From: a virus
Length of the DNA stretch: 28,253 bases
UHGV virus genome: UHGV-0121368
Reading direction: 5' to 3' (one strand)
Position numbers and translations under genes: made by a program. How positions within the stretch are numbered: position 1 is the first letter of the stretch; each line of letters begins with the position of its first letter. Shown one piece after another: positions 1,365 to 21,130 of this stretch. The notes below the pieces were generated by a model. It did no database searches. It was not told the origin of the DNA and worked only from the letters and a program-made list of their open reading frames with translations.

Positions 1365-1636
1365 GCATTCGTATTGAAATTGGCGAACGTTATGTCGTTA
1401 CCAGTGACAGCTTTCAGTTTATTCTCCACGAGAAAAAGAGAGCGGAAAGCGGTAAAAACGCCGGTCAGGAATGGCTGGCGGTGGTTGGTTATTACCCGAA
1501 ATTAAGCCAGCTCGTTTCCGGCCTGATGCATCACGATATTCTGACCGGAAGCGCAAAGTCTTTTGCTGATTTAAACGCGCAGGTTGAGCAACTCAGCAGG
1601 CGTTGTTCAGAGGCTTTTGGCTCACATGGCCGTTAA
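1361..1636 (+). CDS. Hypothetical early-region protein (P2 orf83 position), 91 aa
   Basis: ORF overlaps the start of A by 11 nt; position matches P2 orf83. Confidence 0.5.
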   Translation: MSIRIEIGERYVVTSDSFQFILHEKKRAESGKNAGQEWLAVVGYYPKLSQLVSGLMHHDILTGSAKSFADLNAQVEQLSRRCSEAFGSHGR

Positions 1637-3893
1637 AGCCTCAGGGCGTTTTGTCCCTCCGTCAGCATTTGCCGCAGGCACCGGTAAGGCGTTTACTGGT
1701 GCTTATGCATGGAACGCGCCACGCGAGGCTGTCGGGCGCGAAAGACCCCTTACACGTGACGAGATGCGTCAGGTGCAAGGTGTTTTATCCACGATTAACC
1801 GCCTGCCTTACTTTTTGCGCTCGCTGTTTACTTCACGCTATGACTACATCCGGCGCAATAAAAGTCCGGTACACGGGTTTTATTTCCTCACATCCACTTT
1901 TCAGCGTCGTTTATGGCCGCGCATTGAGCGCGTGAATCAGCGCCATGAAATGAACACCGACGCGTCGTTGCTGTTTCTGGCAGAGCGTGACCACTATGCG
2001 CGCCTGCCTGGAATGAATGACAAGGAGCTGAAAAAGTTTGCCGCCCGTATCTCATCGCAGCTTTTCATGATGTATGAGGAACTCTGCGATGCATGGGTTG
2101 ATGCGCATGGTGAAAAAGAATCGCTGTTTACGGATGAGGCGCAGGCGCATCTGTATGGTCATGTTGCTGGCGCTGCACGTGCTTTCAATATTTCCCCGCT
2201 CTACTGGAAAAAATACCGTAAAGGACAGATGACCACGAGGCAGGCATATTCTGCCATTGCCCGCCTGTTTAACGATGAGTGGTGGATTAGTCAGCTTAAA
2301 GGCCAGCGTATGCGCTGGCATGAAGCGTTACTGATAGCTGTCGGGGAGGTCAATAAAGACCGTTCTCCTTATGCCAGTAAACACGCCATTCGTGATGTGC
2401 GTGCGCGCCGCCAGGCAAATCTGGAATTTCTTAAATCGTGTGACCTTGAAAACAGGGAAACCGGCGAGCGCATCGACCTTATCAGTAAGGTGATGGGCAG
2501 TATTTCTAATCCTGAAATTCGCCGGATGGAGCTGATGAACACCATTGCCGGTATTGAGCGTTACGCCGCTGCAGAGGGTGATGTGGGGATGTTTATCACG
2601 CTGACCGCGCCGTCAAAGTATCACCCGACACGTCAGGTAGGAAAAGGCGAAAGTAAAACCGTGCAGCTTAATCACGGCTGGAACGATGAGGCATTTAATC
2701 CAAAGGATGCGCAGCGTTATCTCTGCCGTATCTGGAGCCTGATGCGCACGGCATTCAAGGATAATGATTTACAGGTCTACGGTTTGCGTGTCGTCGAGCC
2801 ACACCACGACGGAACGCCGCACTGGCATATGATGCTTTTTTGTAATTCACGCCAGCGTAACCAGATTATCGAAATCATGCGTCGCTATGCGCTCAAAGAG
2901 GATGGCGACGAAAGAGGAGCCGCGCGAAACCGTTTTCAGGCAAAACACCTTAACCGGGGCGGTGCTGCGGGATATATCGCGAAATACATTTCAAAAAACA
3001 TCGACGGCTATGCACTGGATGGTCAGCTCGATAACGACACCGGCAGGCCGCTGAAAGACACTGCAGCGGCTGTTACCGCATGGGCGTCAACGTGGCGCAT
3101 CCCGCAATTTAAAACGGTTGGCCTGCCGACAATGGGGGCTTACCGTGAACTACGCAAATTGCCGCGCGGCGTCAGCATTGCTGATGAGTTTGACGAGCGC
3201 GTCGAGGCTGCACGCGCCGCCGCAGACAGTGGTGATTTTGCGTTGTATATCAGCGCGCAGGGTGGGGCAAATGTCCCGCGCGATTGTCAGACTGTCAGGG
3301 TCGCCCGTAGTCCGTCGGATGAAGTTAACGAGTACGAGGAAGAAGTCGAGAGAGTGGTCGGCATTTACGCGCCGCATCTCGGCGCGCGTCATATTCATAT
3401 CACCAGAACGACGGACTGGCGCATTGTTCCGAAAGTGCCGGTCGTTGAGCCTTTGACTTTAAAAAGCGGCATCGCCGCGCCTCGGAGTCCTGTCAATAAC
3501 TGTGGAAAGGTCACCGGTTGTGATACTTCGTTACCGGCTCCCACACCTTCTGAGCACGCCGCAGCAGTGCTTAATCTGGTTGATGACGGTGTTATCGAAT
3601 GGAATAACCCGGAGGTTGTGAGGGCGCTCAGGGGCGCATTAAAACACGGCCTGAGAACGCCAAATCGTCAGCAAAGAAACGGAAGCCCGTTAAAACCACA
3701 TGAAATTGCACCATCGGCCAGACTGACCCGGTCGGAAAGAATGCAAATTACCCGTATCCGCGTTGACCTTGCTCAGAACGGTATCAGGCCGCAGCGATGG
3801 GAGCTTGAGGCGTTGGCGCGCGGGGCAACAGTAATTTATGACGGTGAGCGGTTTAGTTATGCTGTAAAAGACGATTGGGTGATGTTTTCTTAA
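1626..3893 (+). CDS. A: Replication initiation protein A (rolling-circle nicking endonuclease), 755 aa
   Basis: Start moved to the ATG at 1626 (MAVKASGRFVPP...), which matches the P2 gpA N-terminus as I recall it; tandem-tyrosine region GYIAKYISKNIDGY typical of the rolling-circle initiator active site; length close to P2 A (761 aa). Confidence 0.85.
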   Translation: MAVKASGRFVPPSAFAAGTGKAFTGAYAWNAPREAVGRERPLTRDEMRQVQGVLSTINRLPYFLRSLFTSRYDYIRRNKSPVHGFYFLTSTFQRRLWPRIERVNQRHEMNTDASLLFLAERDHYARLPGMNDKELKKFAARISSQLFMMYEELCDAWVDAHGEKESLFTDEAQAHLYGHVAGAARAFNISPLYWKKYRKGQMTTRQAYSAIARLFNDEWWISQLKGQRMRWHEALLIAVGEVNKDRSPYASKHAIRDVRARRQANLEFLKSCDLENRETGERIDLISKVMGSISNPEIRRMELMNTIAGIERYAAAEGDVGMFITLTAPSKYHPTRQVGKGESKTVQLNHGWNDEAFNPKDAQRYLCRIWSLMRTAFKDNDLQVYGLRVVEPHHDGTPHWHMMLFCNSRQRNQIIEIMRRYALKEDGDERGAARNRFQAKHLNRGGAAGYIAKYISKNIDGYALDGQLDNDTGRPLKDTAAAVTAWASTWRIPQFKTVGLPTMGAYRELRKLPRGVSIADEFDERVEAARAAADSGDFALYISAQGGANVPRDCQTVRVARSPSDEVNEYEEEVERVVGIYAPHLGARHIHITRTTDWRIVPKVPVVEPLTLKSGIAAPRSPVNNCGKVTGCDTSLPAPTPSEHAAAVLNLVDDGVIEWNNPEVVRALRGALKHGLRTPNRQQRNGSPLKPHEIAPSARLTRSERMQITRIRVDLAQNGIRPQRWELEALARGATVIYDGERFSYAVKDDWVMFS

Positions 3894-3976
3894 ACTGATG
3901 GCATCATGATACATTAACAAATCTGAAGCAATGCTTTAGTAGTCGTGCATTAATAACTTATAAGGAATTATTATCG

Positions 3977-5299
3977 ATGAGTGCGTTAAGGGATGAAGTA
4001 TCTATGAAGGTTGCGTTCTCTAATGGCATGATAAACAAATTATGCAAAAGTTTTTTTTATAGTCATGGTAAGGAGCAGCCTTGTATTCAAGTCGGTAAAG
4101 CATTAGAAGATTTTGTTTTTTGGCTTGCATATAATGATGAGGAGATTGCAAAATGTGCTAGTAGGTTATTAAAAGCATATGGCCCCCAATTAGGTATAAG
4201 TGACCTTCACAATGCGAAAAGATTATTGTTAGGTTTTTGTTCTGAAGCCTTCAATCGCATTGATGCTGATTTTCTGTCGCTTAATCCTGATAAGATTTGT
4301 GTTGATGATATTATAACGCAAGTTCATAGAAAAAATCTTAGTGAGATGTTTAAGTATTATATACTTTCACGAATAAAATCCTGTCCGTATATTTATAATC
4401 TTGGGTGTGCTGGCTTTGATGGGAAGCTTGAGCTTAGAGAAAATTTATTTTTATATGGCCCGGGGCTAGGGGTGGAATTACTTTCTGATATTAAAGACAA
4501 AACTGACATCAAGGTTCCTGTTGATTTTTATGATGATGAATATATGCGGCATAAACCAATTGGGAAATATTTTCGACAGTCAAAATCCTGCTTGGTGGTG
4601 GCATATGCTTCATCAGAGGATAAAGCGGTGAAAATGTTTGATAGTTTGTTTGGAGCTTTATGTTTTGCGGTTGATAATCCTTTTGCGATTAATCGAGTTG
4701 CTGTTAATAATCTAGTTGAGTCTTTTGGTGTCGGGAAATATCATGAAAGTGAGTTTCGGGTGAATATTCCGTCTGTATATAATTTAAATATAACGGATTC
4801 AGCCTTGGCGATACTTACAAAAATACTTTCATCACCTGATAAAAGGATGTTGTCTGCTCTTTCCTTTATAGCGCACGGGTGGAGGGATGACAAACGTGAA
4901 AGGTTTTTGAATCAATTTATAGCATTGGATGCTATGTATGGAACCAATAATGGTAATAAAAATTCAATTATTGGCGGTGTTTGCAGAGATGCGGCGAAAA
5001 TTATTGATATTGATTCAAAAATAGGAATAATCTATGAGCTTAGGTGTAAGTTTGTTCATGGAGATATTTCATCGTTATCTGATAATGATAGCTATCGAAA
5101 GTTTATTGATAGCTATGGCGTGGACCCTATTGTTTCTCTTTTTGAAATTCTTAAAGAATGCGTCCTTAATTATAATGGTACTTACAAAACGCCAAAAGAT
5201 GTTGGAAAGGCAGATAGGTCTATTTGCGTTCCTGCTGAGTTGCTTCCAGCGGTTGAGAGGATGATAGCGGAATACAGTGGAGTTAAAAAAACAAACTAA
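3977..5299 (+). CDS. Unknown 440-aa accessory protein at the tin/old-equivalent locus; possible HEPN-like C-terminal region (R-x4-H-G)
   Basis: Long uninterrupted ORF in a visibly AT-rich stretch; AAGGA Shine-Dalgarno 10 nt upstream of the ATG; lies between the A stop and cos; no P-loop; motif ELRCKFVHGD at aa 354-363. Confidence 0.6.
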   Translation: MSALRDEVSMKVAFSNGMINKLCKSFFYSHGKEQPCIQVGKALEDFVFWLAYNDEEIAKCASRLLKAYGPQLGISDLHNAKRLLLGFCSEAFNRIDADFLSLNPDKICVDDIITQVHRKNLSEMFKYYILSRIKSCPYIYNLGCAGFDGKLELRENLFLYGPGLGVELLSDIKDKTDIKVPVDFYDDEYMRHKPIGKYFRQSKSCLVVAYASSEDKAVKMFDSLFGALCFAVDNPFAINRVAVNNLVESFGVGKYHESEFRVNIPSVYNLNITDSALAILTKILSSPDKRMLSALSFIAHGWRDDKRERFLNQFIALDAMYGTNNGNKNSIIGGVCRDAAKIIDIDSKIGIIYELRCKFVHGDISSLSDNDSYRKFIDSYGVDPIVSLFEILKECVLNYNGTYKTPKDVGKADRSICVPAELLPAVERMIAEYSGVKKTN

Positions 5300-5440
5300 A
5301 GATGTTCTTTTTAGCCTCGCCTGCATTAGGTGCATAAATTTGCATTCATTTTCAAATATATCTTTTGACAGCGAGCACCAGAACAGGCGCTTGCCGGGGG
5401 GATGATGCACCTGCATTAAAACCGCCCCATTAAGCGGGCG

Positions 5441-5459
5441 GGCGAGGCGGGGAAAGCAC
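5441..5459. other. cos cohesive-end sequence (GGCGAGGCGGGGAAAGCAC)
   Basis: Exact 19-nt string matching the P2/186-type cohesive end as I recall it, located between the accessory locus and the Q/P packaging genes. Confidence 0.6.
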
Positions 5460-5601
5460 TGCGCGCTGGCGGTGGTGCTGATTTTATTTTTTCAGCGTCT
5501 GAGCGCGTCGTGATGGCGTTTAGATTGTTCGCCGGGGCGTTGGTGTGTATGCGGGCTGTTTTGTGCGGTGGTGAGCGTGTGAGGGCGTGATGACGGGGTG
5601 T

Positions 5602-5623
5602 AAAAAAGCCGCCCGCAGGCGGC
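5602..5623 (-). terminator. Rho-independent terminator downstream of Q (minus strand)
   Basis: GCCGCC-CGCA-GGCGGC hairpin followed on the minus strand by TTTTTT, 6 nt after the Q stop codon. Confidence 0.6.
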
Positions 5624-5628
5624 GATGT

Positions 5629-6663
5629 TCAGCCGTTGTCAGTGTCCAGTGAGTAGTTTTTAAAGCGGATGACCTCCTGACCGAGCCAGCCGTTTATCTC
5701 GCGGATCCTGTCCTGTAACGGGATAAGCTCATTGCGGACAAAGACCTTTGCCACTTTCTCAATATCACCCAGCGACCCGACGTTCTCCGGCTTGCCGCCC
5801 ATCAACTGAAAAGGGATGCGGTGCGCGTCCAGCAGGTCTGCGGCGCTGGCTTTTTTGATATTAAAAAAATCGTCCTTCGTTGCCACTTCACTGAGCGGGA
5901 TAATTTTAATACCGTCGGCTTTTCCCTGTGGGGCGTAGAGAAACAGGTTTTTAAAGTTGTTGCGGCCTTTCGACTTCACCATGTTTTCGCGAAGCATTTC
6001 GATATCGTTGCGATCCTGCACGGCATCGGTGACGTACATGATGTATCCGGCATGTGCGCCGTTTTCGTAATACTTGCGGCGGAACAGCGTGGCCGACTCA
6101 TTCAGCCAGGCAGAGTTAAGGGCGCTGAGATATTCCGGCAGGCCGTACAGCTCCTGATTGATATCCGGCTCCAGCAGGTGAAACACGGAGCCGGGCGCGA
6201 AAGGTGTCGGCTCGTTGAAGGATGGCACCCACCAGTAAACATCCTCCTCCACGCCACGGCGGGTATATTTTGCCGGTGAGGTTTCCAGTCTGATGACCTT
6301 ACCGGTGGTGCTGTAACGCTTTTCCAGAAACGCATTACCGAATACCAGAAAATCCAGCACAAAGCGGCTGAAATCCTGCTGAGAAAGCCACGGGTGTGGG
6401 ATAAACGTTGAGGCCAGAATATTACGTTTGACGTAAATCGGTGAGCTGTGATGCACGGCAGCACGCAGGCTTTTTGCCAGACCGGTAAAGCTGACCGGTG
6501 GCTCATACCATCTGCCGTTACTGATGCACTCGACGTAATCCAGAATGTCACGGCGGTCGAGTACCGGCACCGGCTCACCAAAGGTGAATGCCTCCATTTT
6601 CGGGGCGCTGGCGGTCATTTTTTTTGCCGCAGGTTGCGGTGTTTTCCCTTTTTTCTTGCTCAT
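5629..6663 (-). CDS. Q: Portal protein, 344 aa
   Basis: 344-aa ORF divergent from the O/N/M capsid operon and overlapping the P stop; length and position match P2 gpQ. Confidence 0.9.
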   Translation of the reverse strand: MSKKKGKTPQPAAKKMTASAPKMEAFTFGEPVPVLDRRDILDYVECISNGRWYEPPVSFTGLAKSLRAAVHHSSPIYVKRNILASTFIPHPWLSQQDFSRFVLDFLVFGNAFLEKRYSTTGKVIRLETSPAKYTRRGVEEDVYWWVPSFNEPTPFAPGSVFHLLEPDINQELYGLPEYLSALNSAWLNESATLFRRKYYENGAHAGYIMYVTDAVQDRNDIEMLRENMVKSKGRNNFKNLFLYAPQGKADGIKIIPLSEVATKDDFFNIKKASAADLLDAHRIPFQLMGGKPENVGSLGDIEKVAKVFVRNELIPLQDRIREINGWLGQEVIRFKNYSLDTDNG

Positions 6664-8435
6664 CAGTAAAACTCCAGAATGGTGGATGTCAGCGGGGTGC
6701 TGATACCGGCGGTGAGTGGCTCATTTAACAGGGCGTGCATGGTCGCCCAGGCGAGGTCGGCGTGGCTGGCTTCCTCGCTACGGCTGGCCTCATAGGTGGC
6801 GCAGCGTCCGCTGCTGGTCATGGTCTTGCGGATAGCCATAAACGAGCTGGTGATGTCGGTGGCGCTGACGTCATATTCCAGACAGCCACGGCGGATGACG
6901 TCTTTTGCCTTGAGCACCATTGCGGTTTTCATTTCCGGCGTGTAGCGGATATCGCGCGCGGCGGGATAGAACGAGCGCACGAGCTGGAACACGCCGACAC
7001 CGAGGCCGGTGGCATCAATTCCGATGTATTCGACGTTGTATTTTTCGGTGAGTTTGCGGATGGATTCCGCCTGAGTGGCAAAGTCCATGCCTTTCCACTG
7101 GTGACGCTCAAGTATTCTGAATTTACCTCCGGCCACCACCGGCGGTGCCAGCACCACGCATCCGGCGCTGTCGCCACGGTGTGACGGGTCGTAACCAATC
7201 CATACCGGGCGGGAGCCGAACGGATTGGCGGCAAACGGCGCATAGTCTTCCCATTCTTCCAGCGTGTCGACCATGCAGCGTTGCAGCTCCTCGAACGGGA
7301 ACACCGACGCCTTGTCGTCAACAAATTCACACATGAACAGGTTTTTAAAATCGTCGGCGCTGTTTTCACGTTTGAGCTGCTCAATGTCGAACAGCGTGCA
7401 GCCACCTTTCAGGGCGTCCTCAATGGTGACAATCTGCCGCCACTGGCCGTCCGCACAGAGAAGCCCCCCGGCAAGGGCGTTATGACTGACGTCGATTTCC
7501 ACGCGTTCGGCGGCGCTGGCGCGTCCCCGGTTGAACAGTTCACCCGACCAGAATGGGTAGGCGTCGTGCGCCAGCGTGGACGGGGTGGAGAAATAGGTCG
7601 AGCGCAGGTGGCTCTGTGAGGCCATACCTGATGCCACCTTACGCAGTACCTGAAAATTCGGGATCCAGAAAATCTCGTCGACGTACAGGTCGCCGTTATG
7701 GCTCTGTGCGGTGTTGGAGTTGGTGCCGAGAAAAATCAGTTTTGCGCCGTTATTGCCCAGGACAATCGGGTCACCGGTCAGGTCAACGTCAACCAGCCGG
7801 GCAAAGGCGATGATGTATTCGCGGAACACATACGCCTGCGTTTTACTGGCCGACAGAAAAATCTGGTTATGACCGGTTTTCAGGGCGCGCAGCAGCGCCT
7901 CGCGGGAAAAATAAAACGTCGCGCCAATCTGGCGGGATTTCAGGATATCGCGGATGCGGTGCTCAAGCCCGGCGCGATACCAGTGCAACTGATAGTCGAA
8001 AGACTGCTCAAAGAAAATCTGCTCCAGCTTTTCGATGGCCTCGTCACTGAAAAAATTCTTTTTCGGTTTGCGACGCCCGCCTTTGTTGCGGTTAGCGACG
8101 TTCGGATTAAGGTCTGCCTCGTTGCCGGTCTGACTGTAGCGGTTTACCCGTGCCAGTCGTTCAATCTGGCGTCCGAGCAGGTCAATTTCCTTGAAGTCAC
8201 CGCCGGTTTTCTGCGGTTTGATGATGAGCTGGGTCAGCCGCGCTTCCAGACTCATTTCGACACGGCTGATGGGGGCAACGCTGTCCCAGCCGTCGCGCTG
8301 TTTCCAGCTCTGCACCGTCGGGCGTTTCATCTGCAACATGGCGGCAATCTGCGGCACGGAAAACCCCTGCCAGTACAGCAGCGCCGCCTGACGACGCGGG
8401 TCGTGTAAAAGAGTGGTGTCTGTGGTGATGGTCAT
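6663..8435 (-). CDS. P: Terminase large subunit (ATPase), 590 aa
   Basis: Start moved to the internal Met (MTITTDTTLLHDPRRQAALLYWQGF...) giving 590 aa, equal to P2 gpP; adjacent to the portal gene. Confidence 0.9.
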   Translation of the reverse strand: MTITTDTTLLHDPRRQAALLYWQGFSVPQIAAMLQMKRPTVQSWKQRDGWDSVAPISRVEMSLEARLTQLIIKPQKTGGDFKEIDLLGRQIERLARVNRYSQTGNEADLNPNVANRNKGGRRKPKKNFFSDEAIEKLEQIFFEQSFDYQLHWYRAGLEHRIRDILKSRQIGATFYFSREALLRALKTGHNQIFLSASKTQAYVFREYIIAFARLVDVDLTGDPIVLGNNGAKLIFLGTNSNTAQSHNGDLYVDEIFWIPNFQVLRKVASGMASQSHLRSTYFSTPSTLAHDAYPFWSGELFNRGRASAAERVEIDVSHNALAGGLLCADGQWRQIVTIEDALKGGCTLFDIEQLKRENSADDFKNLFMCEFVDDKASVFPFEELQRCMVDTLEEWEDYAPFAANPFGSRPVWIGYDPSHRGDSAGCVVLAPPVVAGGKFRILERHQWKGMDFATQAESIRKLTEKYNVEYIGIDATGLGVGVFQLVRSFYPAARDIRYTPEMKTAMVLKAKDVIRRGCLEYDVSATDITSSFMAIRKTMTSSGRCATYEASRSEEASHADLAWATMHALLNEPLTAGISTPLTSTILEFY

Positions 8436-8608
8436 GAATACCTCGCCGTGATGAATACACGGCAAGGCTACTGAGTCGCGCCCCGCGATTCGCTAAGGTG
8501 CTGTTGTGTCAGTGATAAGCCATCCGGGACTGATGGCGGAGGATGCGCATCGTCGGGAAACTGATGCCGACATGTGACTCCTCTAATCACTATTCAGGAC
8601 TCCTGACA
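8436..8608. promoter_or_regulatory. Divergent late promoter region between P and O (candidate Ogr-dependent promoters)
   Basis: 173-bp intergenic region between divergently transcribed late operons; position equivalent to P2 PP/PO; no exact TGT-N12-ACA dyad identified by eye. Confidence 0.35.
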
Positions 8609-16768: not shown

Positions 16769-17372
16769 TTCGCGACTGCTGCCGACCGGCTCATCACCGC
16801 TTGAAGTCGCTGCTGCAAAAGCCTGTGCGGAAATTGAAAAAACGCCGGTCAGTATTCGTGAGCTGTGGAACCCGGACACCTGCCCGGCAAATCTGCTGCC
16901 GTGGCTGGCGTGGTCATTTTCGGTTGACCGCTGGGATGATAAGTGGCCGGAAGCGACAAAACGCGCTGTTATCCGCGATGCGTATTTCATTCACTGCCAT
17001 AAGGGCACTATAGGCGCAATCCGGCGTGTGGTGGAGCCGCTCGGCTATCTGATTGAGGTGAGGGAGTGGTGGCAACTCAATGAGGAGCCGGGGACGTTCC
17101 GTATCGTTGTTGGCGTGCTTGAGCAGGGTATTACCGAGGAAATGTATCAGGAGCTGGAGCGCCTCGTTGCTGATGCAAAACCGGCAAGCCGCCATCTGAC
17201 GGGACTGGCTATCAGTTTAAGTACAACCGGCAACATTTTTGCCGGTGCGGGATGCTATCACGGCGACGCCCTGACAGTTTATCCCTACACCCCGGAGGCC
17301 ATTATTGTCGGAGGGGATTATTTCCCGGCCTCGGCCATTCATTTAATTGATAACCTGAGAGTAAACGCATGA
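16761..17372 (+). CDS. I: Baseplate protein I, 203 aa
   Basis: Overlaps the J stop and the H start; position matches P2 gpI (recalled as 176 aa, so here somewhat longer). Confidence 0.75.
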   Translation: MSDSRLLPTGSSPLEVAAAKACAEIEKTPVSIRELWNPDTCPANLLPWLAWSFSVDRWDDKWPEATKRAVIRDAYFIHCHKGTIGAIRRVVEPLGYLIEVREWWQLNEEPGTFRIVVGVLEQGITEEMYQELERLVADAKPASRHLTGLAISLSTTGNIFAGAGCYHGDALTVYPYTPEAIIVGGDYFPASAIHLIDNLRVNA

Positions 17373-18781
17373 CAGTGAAATACTACGCCATTCTGACTAA
17401 TCAGGGCGCAGCACGGCTGGCTAACGCGACGATGCTTGGCAGTAAGCTGAATCTGACGCAAATGGCCGTTGGTGATGCGAATGGTGTCTTGCCGACACCA
17501 GACCCGGCACAGACAAAACTGATTAACCAGAAACGCATCGCGCCGCTGAATCTTCTGAGTGTTGACCCGAACAACCAGAGCCAGATTATTGCGGAGCAAA
17601 TTATCCCTGAGAACGAGGGTGGATTCTGGATCCGTGAGATTGGGCTTTATGATGATGAAGGCGTACTCATTGCGGTGGCGAACTGCCCGGAAACGTACAA
17701 ACCGCAGTTACAGGAAGGCAGCGGTCGTACCCAGACTATCCGCATGATTCTGGTTGTCACGAATACCGAAGCTATTACGCTGAAAATCGACCCGTCGGTG
17801 GTACTGGCGACCCGTAAATACGTGGATGATAAAGTCCTGGAATTAAAGCTGTATGTGGATGACCAGATGAGAAACCACATTGCCGCACAGGATCCTCATA
17901 CCCAGTATGCACAGAAACATAATCCGACATTTACCGGAGAACCAAAAGCGCCGACGCCTGCCGCAGGAAATAACACCACGCGGATTGCGACCACTGCGTT
18001 TGTACAGGCCGCTATTACCGCTCTGATTAACGGTGCCCCTGACACGCTGGACACACTGAAAGAAATTGCCGCAGCTATCAACAATGACCCGAAATTCAGT
18101 ACCACCATTAACAATGCGCTGGCAGGTAAACAACCGCTGGACAATACGCTGACTCATTTGAGTGGAAAGGATGTAGCTGGTCTTCTCACATACCTTGGTT
18201 TGGGAGAAGGCTCTGCATTACCTGTTGGTGTCCCTGTTCCGTGGCCTTCAGCCACTCCGCCAACAGGCTGGCTGAAATGCAATGGTGCGGCTTTTTCTGC
18301 TGAAGAATACCCGGAACTGGCAAAGGCTTACCCGACAAATAAATTGCCAGATTTACGTGGTGAGTTTATTCGTGGCTGGGATGACGGGCGAGGGATTGAT
18401 GGGGGGCGCATACTTCTCAGTTGTCAGAGTTTTGCTTTCCAGGACCATGCGCACGCTCTGCCAACCGGAGTGGGTAATCCGTCATACCAGATGGAAAGCG
18501 ATATCTATACGGTTTTCAACGATGAACCAGAAATACCCAGTGCGGTCCTGAGTCCATCGTCGTCAGGAACATCATGGGACGCAACCAGTAGGGCAGACAA
18601 GGTAATCCTTTATCGCAAGGACCTTTCACCAACAGGTAATAACAACGAAATAGCGCCCGGATTACCACCATTCAGGACTTACAGGGCATCGACCTCAGAC
18701 GGTGTTACTCATCCGTCCGTGTACGCATCTGAAACCCGTCCGCGCAACATTGCATTTAACTACATCGTGAGGGCTGCATAA
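17369..18781 (+). CDS. H: Tail fibre protein H, 470 aa in the current orientation of the invertible segment
   Basis: Tail-fibre-like N-terminus (MTVKYYAILTNQGAARLANATMLGSKLNLTQMAVGDANG...); the C-terminal 194 aa lie inside the invertible segment. Confidence 0.85.
   Translation: MTVKYYAILTNQGAARLANATMLGSKLNLTQMAVGDANGVLPTPDPAQTKLINQKRIAPLNLLSVDPNNQSQIIAEQIIPENEGGFWIREIGLYDDEGVLIAVANCPETYKPQLQEGSGRTQTIRMILVVTNTEAITLKIDPSVVLATRKYVDDKVLELKLYVDDQMRNHIAAQDPHTQYAQKHNPTFTGEPKAPTPAAGNNTTRIATTAFVQAAITALINGAPDTLDTLKEIAAAINNDPKFSTTINNALAGKQPLDNTLTHLSGKDVAGLLTYLGLGEGSALPVGVPVPWPSATPPTGWLKCNGAAFSAEEYPELAKAYPTNKLPDLRGEFIRGWDDGRGIDGGRILLSCQSFAFQDHAHALPTGVGNPSYQMESDIYTVFNDEPEIPSAVLSPSSSGTSWDATSRADKVILYRKDLSPTGNNNEIAPGLPPFRTYRASTSDGVTHPSVYASETRPRNIAFNYIVRAA
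18183..18208. repeat. Left 26-bp Hin/Gin-type crossover site (TTCTCACATACC-TT-GGTTTGGGAGAA) inside H
   Basis: The 12-bp half-site GGTTTGGGAGAA is the exact inverted repeat of TTCTCCCAAACC at 19869..19880; overall layout resembles hix/gix sites (12-bp half-site, 2-bp core, 12-bp half-site). Confidence 0.65.
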
Positions 18782-19386
18782 TGGCGAAAGCAAAATTAAA
18801 CAGTGCGTTTATTGCCACCGTGGCAGGAGAAATCACTGTGTACAACTACCGGGGCGACACCCGCGAATACATATCCTCATCGCTTGAGTATCTGCCTGTG
18901 GGGGTGGGTATTCCTGCCAATTCCTGTACCGATGCGCCCGGCACACATAAGGCTGGTTATGCAATCTGCCGTTCTGCAGATTTTAACTCATGGGAATATG
19001 TGCCAGACCATCGCGGTGAAATTGTCTATGGCATCGAAACGGGGGAATCAAAAGAAATTACTGTGCCGGGGGATTACCCTGAAAATACGACCACTTTTGC
19101 CCCATTAACGCCATACGATAAATGGGATGGTGAGAAATGGGTAACAGATACCGAGGCACAGCATAGCGCCGCAGTAGATGCAGCAGAAGTACAGCGCCAG
19201 TCTCTGATTGATGCTGCTATGGCTTCCATCAGTCTGATTCAGCTGAAATTGCAGGCCGGACGTAAACTGACGCAGGCAGAAACAACCCGCCTTAACGCTG
19301 TGCTGGATTACATTGACGCGGTGACGGCAATAGATACCAGCACCGCGCCTGATATTATTTGGCCTGTATTCCCTGAGACTGATTAA
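18781..19386 (+). CDS. G: Tail fibre assembly chaperone, 201 aa
   Basis: ATG overlaps the H stop (TAATG); C-terminal motif DTSTAPDIIWPVFP typical of Tfa-family chaperones. Confidence 0.8.
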   Translation: MAKAKLNSAFIATVAGEITVYNYRGDTREYISSSLEYLPVGVGIPANSCTDAPGTHKAGYAICRSADFNSWEYVPDHRGEIVYGIETGESKEITVPGDYPENTTTFAPLTPYDKWDGEKWVTDTEAQHSAAVDAAEVQRQSLIDAAMASISLIQLKLQAGRKLTQAETTRLNAVLDYIDAVTAIDTSTAPDIIWPVFPETD

Positions 19387-19615
19387 CCTCAATCAGTATT
19401 GGTTCGCCTTTCTCATTAATTGTTAGCTCCATGCCCTGAGGAATTTCTGTCATAGTAAAAAACCAGTTGTCCTCCGGTAATTCAATAGCCCCGGTCACGT
19501 CATGAAGACCGGGGATTACTTCAGTCAAAGTAACTGGATTAAACAGGCGCACAATAAACCCTCCATGAAAAAGCATTTGATGATGGTCTGCCGTCGTACA
19601 TCTGGCAGCGGGCAT
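19355..19615 (-). CDS. Small ORF (86 aa) downstream of the alternative H cassette; possible alternative chaperone, or spurious
   Basis: Minus-strand ORF inside the invertible segment; overlaps the alternative H cassette and the 3' end of G; lacks the Tfa C-terminal motif. Confidence 0.2.
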   Translation of the reverse strand: MPAARCTTADHHQMLFHGGFIVRLFNPVTLTEVIPGLHDVTGAIELPEDNWFFTMTEIPQGMELTINEKGEPILIEVNQSQGIQAK

Positions 19616-19880
19616 AAAAGCCGGTATTTGTTACCTGATCATCCACGATCATTGAAACGTGAACATTATTAGGTGTGCTCTCGTAATCCGTTCTTATTCT
19701 TTCTGCGATACTGATAAAACGTGAAAGTTTAGGCAGTGCAATTGGGTAAACGACTTTAGCCAGTCCATTATCATTAGATCCACCGGTTCCAAATACTTCT
19801 ATTGCACCATCTGACCAGCGTACCCATGCACCATTGGCATTAGCTCCTCGCTGAATGACATATCTGGCTTCTCCCAAACC
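19539..19880 (-). CDS. Alternative tail-fibre C-terminal cassette (about 113 aa), silent in the current orientation
   Basis: The minus-strand frame reads G-L-G-E across the crossover half-site exactly as H does, so inversion fuses the constant H N-terminus (aa 1-276) in frame to ...GLGEARYVIQRGANANGAWVRW...; no own start codon or promoter. Confidence 0.55.
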   Translation of the reverse strand, partial: GLGEARYVIQRGANANGAWVRWSDGAIEVFGTGGSNDNGLAKVVYPIALPKLSRFISIAERIRTDYESTPNNVHVSMIVDDQVTNTGFYARCQMYDGRPSSNAFSWRVYCAPV

Positions 19881-19894
19881 AACGTTTTATGGAA
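19869..19894. repeat. Right 26-bp Hin/Gin-type crossover site (TTCTCCCAAACC-AA-CGTTTTATGGAA)
   Basis: Inverted partner of the site at 18183..18208; 14 of the first 14 positions are identical to the reverse complement of the left site. Confidence 0.65.
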
Positions 19895-19982
19895 TCGGTT
19901 AAATATGATGTTGAAAGAAGGGAATGTTTTAGTATTGATTGTTAGATAAAAATGGAAAGTGCTGATTGTCACGGTATATTTT

Positions 19983-20014
19983 AAGATGGTAACACCAAAT
20001 GGTGCTACCATCTT
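19983..20014. terminator. 14-bp stem-loop (AAGATGGTAACACC-AAAT-GGTGCTACCATCTT), possible bidirectional terminator
   Basis: Near-perfect inverted repeat with one G-U-compatible mismatch, followed on the plus strand by TATTAGTT; lies between the right crossover site and the 105-aa ORF stop. Confidence 0.4.
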
Positions 20015-20020
20015 TATTAG

Positions 20021-20338
20021 TTATCTGTTCCTTCTGAGGATTCCGCTACTCCCTTGTGTTGTAGGGTTTGATTTTTTCCAATAATGATAACCTTGTGATG
20101 TAATCCTTAGAGAGTCAGTATCTACACTCCATCCATCAATACTTTCAGGAGAACCATCAAAGATTACCTTTCCTGTAAGATACCCATCGTCATGCAGAAA
20201 GGCGATATATCCATAAACTTCTTTTAAATCACCAATTTCATTGACCAGGCGTTCCCACGCTTGAGCAGTGATTCTCTCTGGATAGGCTTCGACAAAATAT
20301 TTCAGTGTGGTAGTTTTTTTATTGGTATCGATGTTCAT
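20021..20338 (-). CDS. Unknown 105-aa protein in the Z/fun-equivalent variable locus
   Basis: Minus-strand ORF in an AT-rich island between the invertible segment and the invertase gene; no recognisable motif. Confidence 0.45.
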   Translation of the reverse strand: MNIDTNKKTTTLKYFVEAYPERITAQAWERLVNEIGDLKEVYGYIAFLHDDGYLTGKVIFDGSPESIDGWSVDTDSLRITSQGYHYWKKSNPTTQGSSGILRRNR

Positions 20339-20536
20339 CAGATTTTCCTTTTATTGAGGTCAACATATCTTACCATACTTAATTGATTCACATGGGAATG
20401 CTAAGTGGGCTATGTATCCACTATCAGTAAATATTCTTATCCTGCAAGATTATTGTAATTGAGTGCTTCATAGTCTTGTCCGCTTGTACATATATAGATA
20501 ATTCTGTGTCATTATTCTGTTTTTATAGGGATTTTT

Positions 20537-21130
20537 ATGCATATAGGTTATGTTCGTGTATCAACAAATGACCAGAACACGGAATTGCAGCGTAACGCGC
20601 TGGAGTGCGCAGGATGTGAGCTGATTTTTGAGGATAAAATCAGCGGCACGAAGTCCGATCGACCGGGACTGAAAAAACTGCTCAGAACATTATCAGCAGG
20701 TGACACTCTGGTAGTCTGGAAGCTGGACAGGCTGGGGCGTAGTATGCGGCATCTGGTCATTCTGGTTGAGGAACTGCGCGAACGCGGTGTTAATTTTCGC
20801 AGCCTGACGGATGCCATTGATACCAGCACGCCGATGGGGCGTTTTTTCTTTCATGTGATGGGGGCCCTGGCTGAAATGGAACGAGAACTCATTGTCGAGC
20901 GGACTCGGGCCGGGCTGGAAGTGGCCAGAGCCAAAGGTCGTATTGGTGGCAGACGTCCTAAACTCACCACGAGTGAGTGGGAGCAGGCCGGGCGTTTGCT
21001 GGCTGCAGGGGAGTCACGTCAACGCGTGGCACTGATTTTTGATATTGGTCTGTCCACGCTCTATAAAAAATTTCCCTCATCAGCGACAAAGAATAAATTG
21101 TGTCATCCCTTAGCCAACCGGGACAAATAG
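20537..21130 (+). CDS. Serine DNA invertase (Hin/Gin/Pin/Cin family), 197 aa
   Basis: N-terminal catalytic motif IGYVRVSTNDQ with the nucleophilic Ser near position 9-10; LVVWKLDRLGRS and GRFFFHVMGALAEMERELIVERT blocks; C-terminal HTH (GLSTLYKKFP); closely resembles Hin as I recall it. Confidence 0.9.
   Translation: MHIGYVRVSTNDQNTELQRNALECAGCELIFEDKISGTKSDRPGLKKLLRTLSAGDTLVVWKLDRLGRSMRHLVILVEELRERGVNFRSLTDAIDTSTPMGRFFFHVMGALAEMERELIVERTRAGLEVARAKGRIGGRRPKLTTSEWEQAGRLLAAGESRQRVALIFDIGLSTLYKKFPSSATKNKLCHPLANRDK

Follow-up and report, generated by a model that had tools for sequence, protein, structure and literature searches.

Results and Discussion

Gene content and composition of the gpA-cos slot

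The viral DNA analyzed here, a stretch of 28,253 nt from genome UHGV-0121368 that is referred to below as the window, is a P2-like prophage in which the early-operon genes lie on the plus strand and end in gpA, the replication endonuclease gene (1584..3893, +). The gene under study, hereafter the cargo gene, is an open reading frame (ORF) at 3977..5299 (+) that begins with an ATG and encodes a 440-aa, two-domain protein (PHROG 23812; RefSeq WP_053264581.1). It is the only gene from the gpA stop codon (3893) to the P2 cos site, and the sole long ORF between gpA and the portal gene gpQ (5629..6663, -), which is followed by the terminase gene gpP (6663..8465, -). The cos site was recognized as an exact match to the P2 19-mer GGCGAGGCGGGGAAAGCAC at 5441..5459, where it forms the right-hand edge of the hotspot described below; the same 19-mer is also present in the P4/P2 clones of Rousset et al. 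2022 (PMC9122126).

The base composition of the cargo gene sets it apart from its surroundings. Its GC content is 0.355 (0.359 for 3894-5404), whereas gpA, at 0.532, and gpQ, at 0.531, are at the level of the window as a whole (0.531). At third codon positions the GC content is 0.281 in the cargo gene versus 0.544 in gpA. A scan of all 1323-nt segments across the 28,253-nt window placed the cargo region at the minimum (0.346; mean 0.535, standard deviation 0.054), more than three standard deviations under the mean. An earlier note on this DNA, made by inspection of the letters, had described an AT-rich ORF between GC-rich flanks and a single occupant between the gpA stop codon and cos; the windowed calculation confirmed the former, and the latter held as well, with no second credible ORF in 3850-5630.

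Comparison by BLASTN with phages pro483 and vB_YpM_50 showed that homology to the phage backbone stops at 3715-3844 and restarts at 5405-5406; overall, the left-hand break is put at about 3844-3893. The same slot holds a DUF4238 cargo gene in pro483, and a DUF3850 gene together with a hypothetical protein in vB_YpM_50. With variable DNA at this position and different cargo in related P2-like phages, the slot qualifies as P2 hotspot 1 (gpA-cos-gpQ), which was defined by Rousset et al. (PMC9122126; see also PMC9519451) and is an experimentally validated anti-phage defence hotspot. The low GC content and the break in backbone homology also agree with the proposal of the earlier note that the gene reached the tin/old position of this P2-like prophage by horizontal acquisition, as cargo. 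The interval that it had assigned to this cargo, 3894..5440, needs trimming: the cargo itself stands, and the right end lies about 35 nt inside the conserved cos flank, as the cargo proper stops at about 5404.

Flanking sequences of the cargo gene

The 5' untranslated gap that separates the cargo gene from the gpA stop codon (3894..3976, +) is 83 nt long, is about 74-75% conserved relative to Enterobacter-type loci, and contains AAGGA at 3962-3966, which may serve for ribosome binding. The ATG at 4004 (M10) is an alternative start, and the corresponding position is the start used by many homologues. On the other side, the cargo-specific 3' flank runs from the stop codon to the cos-proximal backbone (5300..5404, +). 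These ~105 nt are about 72-75% conserved between the E. coli-type cargo and the Enterobacter-type cargo (loci L026, at 7754-7860, L006 and L036); the proteins of the two types are only 62-64% identical. The conserved flank may contain a terminator or a regulatory site, or may include a joint left by recombination.

The flanks were also searched for a partner gene or RNA. An Rfam scan of 3850-5630 gave no match, folding of the 3' flank as RNA gave no significant structure (z -0.88), a search for tandem repeats in 3700-5700 found none, and a small-ORF search of the cargo region returned no conserved partner ORF. A 42-aa ORF at 5277..5405 was considered as a partner gene and rejected; it resembles ORFs elsewhere because the nucleotide flank is conserved, and its likeness across lineages reflects that flank only.

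A predicted HEPN ribonuclease domain at the C-terminus

An AlphaFold2 model built with 22 homologues (predicted local distance difference test score, 78) divides the protein into an alpha/beta region of residues 1-272 (3977..4792, +), presumed to be a sensor or regulatory module, and a helical C-terminal domain. The latter, at residues ~286-400 (4832..5176, +), is predicted to be a HEPN ribonuclease (RNase) domain, with helices at 289-300, 306-321, 345-360 and 384-398 and an insert helix at 328-338. According to Anantharaman et al. 2013 (PMC3710099), the HEPN active site comprises an Rx4-6H motif where helix 3 ends and an acidic residue in helix 2, with an insert between helices 2 and 3. A regular-expression search found one Rx4-6H motif in the 440 residues, R356-CKFV-H361 (codons 5042..5059, +), which is the predicted catalytic site. 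The model places R356 at the end of helix 345-360 and H361 at the start of the loop that comes after it, and the acidic residue D318 (codon 4928..4930, +; motif IALDA[LM][FY]G) is located in helix 306-321, so that both the motif and the helix-2 acid are placed as the HEPN description has them. Across an alignment of 24 sequences that share 14-50% identity, D318, G322, R356, H361 and P384 are invariant.

Altogether, we consider the assignment of the C-terminal domain as a HEPN RNase domain to be predicted with high confidence. The matches counted for the HEPN fold vanished when residues 1-272 were searched alone, and TetR-like matches persisted. The RefSeq name of WP_053264581.1 is already 'HEPN domain-containing protein', and the only PHROGs match is phrog_23812, an unannotated family. 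The view taken in the earlier note, that the protein fits no known family, can thus no longer be maintained for residues ~286-400, and the R356/H361 pair that it had singled out for mutation corresponds to the predicted HEPN Rx4H catalytic motif.

Structural databases provided little further information. A profile search of PDB sequences with the cargo family gave zero matches at E<=10, and a Foldseek search of the model against the PDB returned nothing below E 0.87. The N-terminal alpha/beta domain of about 270 aa has no convincing match to any solved fold, and nothing like a CARF or SAVED fold was detected there.

A fast-evolving N-terminal domain on a conserved core

The two domains differ in their degree of conservation. 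Within the close family, the mean pairwise identity is 71% for the HEPN domain and 54% for the N-terminal domain. When 1.84 billion cluster representatives were searched with a profile, 225 relatives reached E<=0.001; most of these are 400-480 aa long, align only over residues 277-390, and carry differing N-terminal regions of about 300 aa. Since the N-terminal domain evolves faster and is swapped in distant relatives, the sequences show the pattern of a putative variable sensor joined to a conserved effector.

Relationship to characterized HEPN and hotspot systems

The closest likeness among characterized systems is to ApeA (Gao et al. 2020; Ec1ApeA, WP_000706972; PADLOC model PDLC02157). Each consists of a single gene whose product carries Rx4H in a C-terminal HEPN domain, and the two are similar in the helix-1/helix-2 signature R..[SA]L.[FY]...[FW]IA[LI][DE].[LM][FY] and in the motif IY.LR.K..HG; E389 of ApeA (WIALE) is the counterpart of D318. 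The ApeA family was recovered with the first 399 residues of Ec1ApeA (from the ApeA preprint supplement) as the query. In a full-length hhalign comparison, only the region of HEPN helices 1-2 aligned (probability 27%). At the level of the domain, residues 286-345 of the cargo protein aligned to ApeA 356-415 (E 9e-5, probability 59%) and residues 326-364 to ApeA 494-529, including the RxxxxH motif (E 9.5e-4, probability 22%), and these two matches are collinear. Such split matches are expected if the HEPN core is Apea-like and lacks the ~100-aa insertion of ApeA.

The differences from ApeA are nevertheless considerable. ApeA is a protein of about 600 aa, built almost wholly of alpha-helices and organized into N, Mid and split-HEPN domains plus the ~100-aa insertion, whereas the cargo protein has 440 aa, an alpha/beta N-terminal domain and a compact HEPN domain of ~115 aa without that insertion. 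The N-terminal regions of the two proteins have no similarity. Against PDLC02157 the cargo protein gave no match at E<=10; Ec1ApeA scored 1362 bits, and relatives with 32% identity scored 316 and 283 bits. ApeA forms decamers and is an abortive tRNA anticodon nuclease that is activated by 5'-phosphorylated deoxydinucleotides through a pocket outside the active site. Membership of the cargo protein in ApeA was rejected because the family model misses it, the architecture differs and the N-termini are unrelated. As judged from sequence, the effector core may be Apea-like, and the protein is outside the ApeA system.

Two further single-protein systems resemble the cargo gene in organization. HepS of the Gifsy-1 prophage of Salmonella (PMC13043305) is likewise a prophage-borne single HEPN protein with no partner gene in an accessory-gene slot. 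It acts as an abortive anticodon nuclease without harming its own phage, functions when placed in the P2 old locus, and is triggered by the siphovirus tail-tip protein J (PMC13043305). HepS, however, is a small HEPN-only protein with its Rx4H at R100-H105 and residues cited to T203, and the cargo protein was not assigned to it given this HEPN-only architecture and the lack of any PDB sequence matching the cargo family profile. DARNA/PD-T7-3 (10.64898/2026.02.22.705581) is a single-protein HEPN abortive tRNase of 456 aa, close in size to the cargo protein, in which a large non-catalytic domain senses an infection cue, but its HEPN domain is N-terminal, in the reverse order, and the remaining domain, all-alpha and Pds5-like, binds single-stranded DNA (ssDNA). 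The opposite domain order, together with the absence of matches in PADLOC, PD-T7 models included, led us to set this identity aside.

Other candidates were rejected on the basis of gene content or motifs. RnlA/LsoA (RNase LS) was dismissed for want of an antitoxin gene and of a sequence match, and a type III AbiF-like toxin because tandem-repeat antitoxin RNA was not found in 3700-5700 and Rfam gave no match. P2 old and tin occupy the same slot and have the same presumed role, the exclusion of competing phages. P2 Old is an abortive tRNase (PMC12445682), and PARIS AriB is, like P2 Old, a tRNase in the same or equivalent hotspots. Old combines an ABC-ATPase with a Toprim nuclease; the cargo protein, in contrast, has no Walker A motif and is predicted to have a metal-independent HEPN fold. 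Regular-expression searches of the 440-aa protein found no [AG]xxxxGK[ST] or GK[ST] and no HExxH, in agreement with the earlier note on both motifs, and with no PADLOC match either, an Old/PARIS-type ATPase-Toprim protein and a Lit-type protease were both rejected.

Distribution and genomic contexts

The cargo gene was found in 46 of 5426 complete E. coli genomes (~0.85%), in every case on the chromosome, at full length and with at least 99.2% identity. The whole gpA-cargo-gpQ stretch is likewise carried by 46 E. coli genomes, clinical strains of sequence type 131 (ST131) among them, and since both counts are the same, all E. coli copies lie in the gpA-gpQ slot. In one genome, E. coli THO-015 (NZ_AP022549.1), two sites match the gene, presumably two P2-like prophages with the same cargo. 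The 90% identity cluster of the protein has 398 members, and orthologues with 45-71% identity that keep the motifs occur in at least eight genera.

Among viral contigs of IMG/VR, 17 carry a relative, and in all 17 the gene lies between gpA and gpQ. Ten of them belong to a second P2 lineage, in which gpA is 74-76% identical and the cargo copy 61-64% identical. Searches by tblastn of INPHARED phages and PLSDB plasmids found no copy, and the known copies are those of prophages and IMG/VR contigs. In a P2-like prophage of Serratia quinivorans (L011, 7094-10603), a 53%-identical copy lies on the opposite strand between the genes for the baseplate spike gpV and the tail-completion protein gpS; P2-like genomes have therefore received this same cargo at two different variable sites. 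In some P2-like IMG/VR contigs (L036, 4130-6889; L035, 888-3815), the HEPN gene abuts cos and is followed by an extra 2.5-3 kb before gpQ. In L036 the extra DNA sits between cos and gpQ, which points to further cargo between cos and the portal gene.

In P2-like prophages of several genera, homologues are carried as cargo of one gene; outside phages, they occur in a variety of settings. Vibrio homologues (49% identical; L002-L005) have a gene for a 222-aa orphan upstream and one for a 374-aa HNH_5 protein downstream in four contexts that otherwise differ, and in one of these (L002, 7079-10521) the trio adjoins a HEPN_RES_NTD1/RES gene and a CBASS operon (SAVED and a DncV-like nucleotidyltransferase). 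A PADLOC scan of the orphan and the HNH_5 neighbour gave no match for either. The Vibrio trio may be a mobile three-gene unit or may consist of separate defence genes; a general module of these three genes was rejected, as neither neighbour occurs at any P2 locus or at the other marine loci. The Pseudoalteromonas copy lies in an integrase island with SLFN_AlbA_2, DEAD helicase and Hypoth_Ymh genes, the Idiomarina copy among IS21 copies with McrB_N and DUF6119 genes, and a metagenome copy in an integrase island with KAP_NTPase and kinase genes. The Shewanella copy is solitary. No neighbour is common to all contexts, so the gene appears to work alone.

Previous descriptions of the protein

The protein was already listed by Rousset et al. 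2022 (PMC9122126), whose Table S5A gives WP_053264581 as "HEPN_Apea". Their Table S5B contains a protein with the same start and two differences over the ~400 aa shown as system #45, a single protein with the HH-suite label 'HEPN_Apea'. This system had 84 occurrences among 18,150 loci and carries the note "Likely a RNAse". The cargo protein is not among the systems cloned in that study, and the P2 construct pFR103, labelled 'Putative HEPN', holds a different protein and is not a test of the one described here. In the portions of the DefensePredictor supplements that were available, neither the accession nor the sequence of the cargo protein was present. The earlier note had presented the gene as a candidate for an undescribed single-protein abortive-infection or exclusion system. 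Its defence role survives as the most likely function, but the protein cannot be called undescribed, having been catalogued in 2022 as a P2-hotspot system and named as a HEPN protein in RefSeq.

Proposed function and alternative explanations

The cargo protein has an intact HEPN catalytic signature, and its gene moves as a single gene and resides in hotspots and defence islands. We propose that it is probably a self-contained module for abortive infection or exclusion, a single-protein RNase with an N-terminal sensor and a HEPN effector, located in P2 hotspot 1; a role in anti-phage defence, taken more broadly, is likely. In this mechanism, the N-terminal domain of ~270 aa would hold the enzyme inactive in the lysogen and would sense something that an infecting phage produces, be it a protein or a small molecule. 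Detection would lead two HEPN domains to pair into a composite, metal-independent RNase site, and the active enzyme would cut cellular RNA, with translation halting and the competing phage failing before it can replicate. By likeness to ApeA, HepS, DARNA and PrrC/RloC, tRNA anticodon loops can tentatively be put forward as the substrate, and mRNA is possible, as for RnlA. A tRNase effector logic would be typical of this locus, as seen from P2 Old and PARIS AriB.

Several observations weigh against this proposal of an abortive-infection RNase. The promoter scan of the 83-nt gap upstream of the gene found no sigma-70 site with at least 9 of 12 matching positions. HEPN proteins are described as having a polar N, D or H after the catalytic arginine, and here this residue is C357; members of the close family have C or S at this position, and distant relatives mostly N, with S, C, H or G in the rest. 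An hmmscan of the cargo protein against Pfam, NCBIfam and PADLOC 2.0 gave no match, and scans of 21 homologues and 10 distant relatives with the same three libraries gave no meaningful match. In control searches, hmmscan with the 2025 Pfam missed HEPN_Apea (PF18739) even in the type protein Ec1ApeA, as well as in P4-hotspot proteins that Rousset et al. had labelled HEPN_Apea; because genuine ApeA is missed too, Pfam negatives are uninformative for the HEPN_Apea clade. Additionally, of eight further P2 systems cloned by Rousset et al. (PMC9122126), activity was seen in three, and since only some cloned hotspot systems are active, location in the hotspot alone is no proof of defence. A literature search found no phage assay, toxicity assay or RNase assay of the cargo protein, and the trigger and substrate named above are drawn purely from analogy.

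Other functions have to be considered for a phage-borne HEPN protein. One is that of a counter-defence enzyme, in which the HEPN site would degrade cyclic-oligonucleotide signals or host RNAs and so help P2 or its lysogen to beat host immunity. Csm6-type HEPN enzymes do also deplete cyclic oligoadenylate signals (10.64898/2026.02.22.705581), the gene is carried by a phage, and one Vibrio homologue stands beside a CBASS operon. However, the E. coli copies are always in the slot of exclusion genes such as old and tin, the non-phage homologues lie in islands with defence-type genes and no consistent signalling system, the N-terminal domain shows no CARF- or SAVED-like fold, and the 222-aa, HNH_5 and CBASS neighbours are missing from most contexts, which together make this function unlikely. 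We regard as equally unlikely that the protein is an addiction or stabilization toxin that keeps the prophage, or the toxin of a toxin-antitoxin pair whose antitoxin is an unrecognized RNA or a host factor, with no primary anti-phage role. Many HEPN proteins are indeed toxins of this kind (HepT, RnlA, and AbiF with its RNA antitoxin), and the conservation of ~110 nt of 3' flank across lineages would be in keeping with such an arrangement; yet the flanks yielded no conserved partner ORF, tandem repeats, Rfam match or structure signal, the gene is solitary in unrelated contexts, and post-segregational killing brings little benefit to a prophage that is integrated.

The invariance of the active site bears on a further explanation, namely that the HEPN domain serves for binding or as a scaffold, with no catalysis, and that the protein has another function in the lysogen, for example in regulation. 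HEPN families without catalysis have lost the Rx4-6H motif, whereas R356, H361 and the helix-2 acid are retained here in very divergent relatives, and this explanation is accordingly quite improbable. Least probable of all is a decaying remnant ORF without present function. AT-rich foreign DNA is often silenced, and the missing promoter signal would fit a silent gene, but the ORF is intact in 46 of 46 E. coli genomes at the identity given above, belongs to a cluster of 398 members, and has orthologues in several genera that retain the motifs. The single-protein abortive-infection RNase is thus preferred over these alternatives.

A second low-GC stretch in the window

The window contains a second stretch of low GC content (~0.40) at 19355-21130. 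Its upstream neighbour is the tail fibre gene H (17369..18781), followed by a Caudo_TAP assembly gene (18781..19386). The region itself comprises fibre-tip and assembly fragments (19355..19877, -), a gene for a 105-aa orphan (20021..20338, -) and a serine recombinase gene (20537..21130; Resolvase and HTH_7, E 1e-51). The arrangement resembles a Gin/Cin-type invertible segment for host range at the variable locus on the Z/fun side; no long inverted repeats were found.

Implications

A variable sensor combined with a HEPN effector in the tin/old hotspot is already expected by specialists, and the gene is catalogued, so that the gain in knowledge would be incremental unless the trigger is unusual. 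What could be novel is confined to the sensor domain and the trigger to which it responds. It is conceivable, though we hold this tentatively, that the family is a distinct and unnamed single-protein defence system in which the N-terminal domain is a new infection sensor that gates a minimal Apea-like HEPN RNase. Its trigger might then, with a similar degree of reserve, be unlike the deoxydinucleotides of ApeA, the tail tip of HepS and the ssDNA bound by single-stranded DNA-binding protein (SSB) of DARNA. If the family is such a system, the ~225 clusters that share the HEPN core only would represent a large set of interchangeable sensors on one effector.

If active, the cargo gene would be a compact one-gene addition to the HEPN abortive-infection RNases, with a putative sensor domain that has no convincing match among solved folds. 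Its carriage in complete E. coli genomes, those of clinical ST131 strains included, means that it could affect the host range of phages used in therapy. The gene also offers a practical test case for how a prophage-borne suicide RNase stays silent during the lytic cycle of P2 itself.

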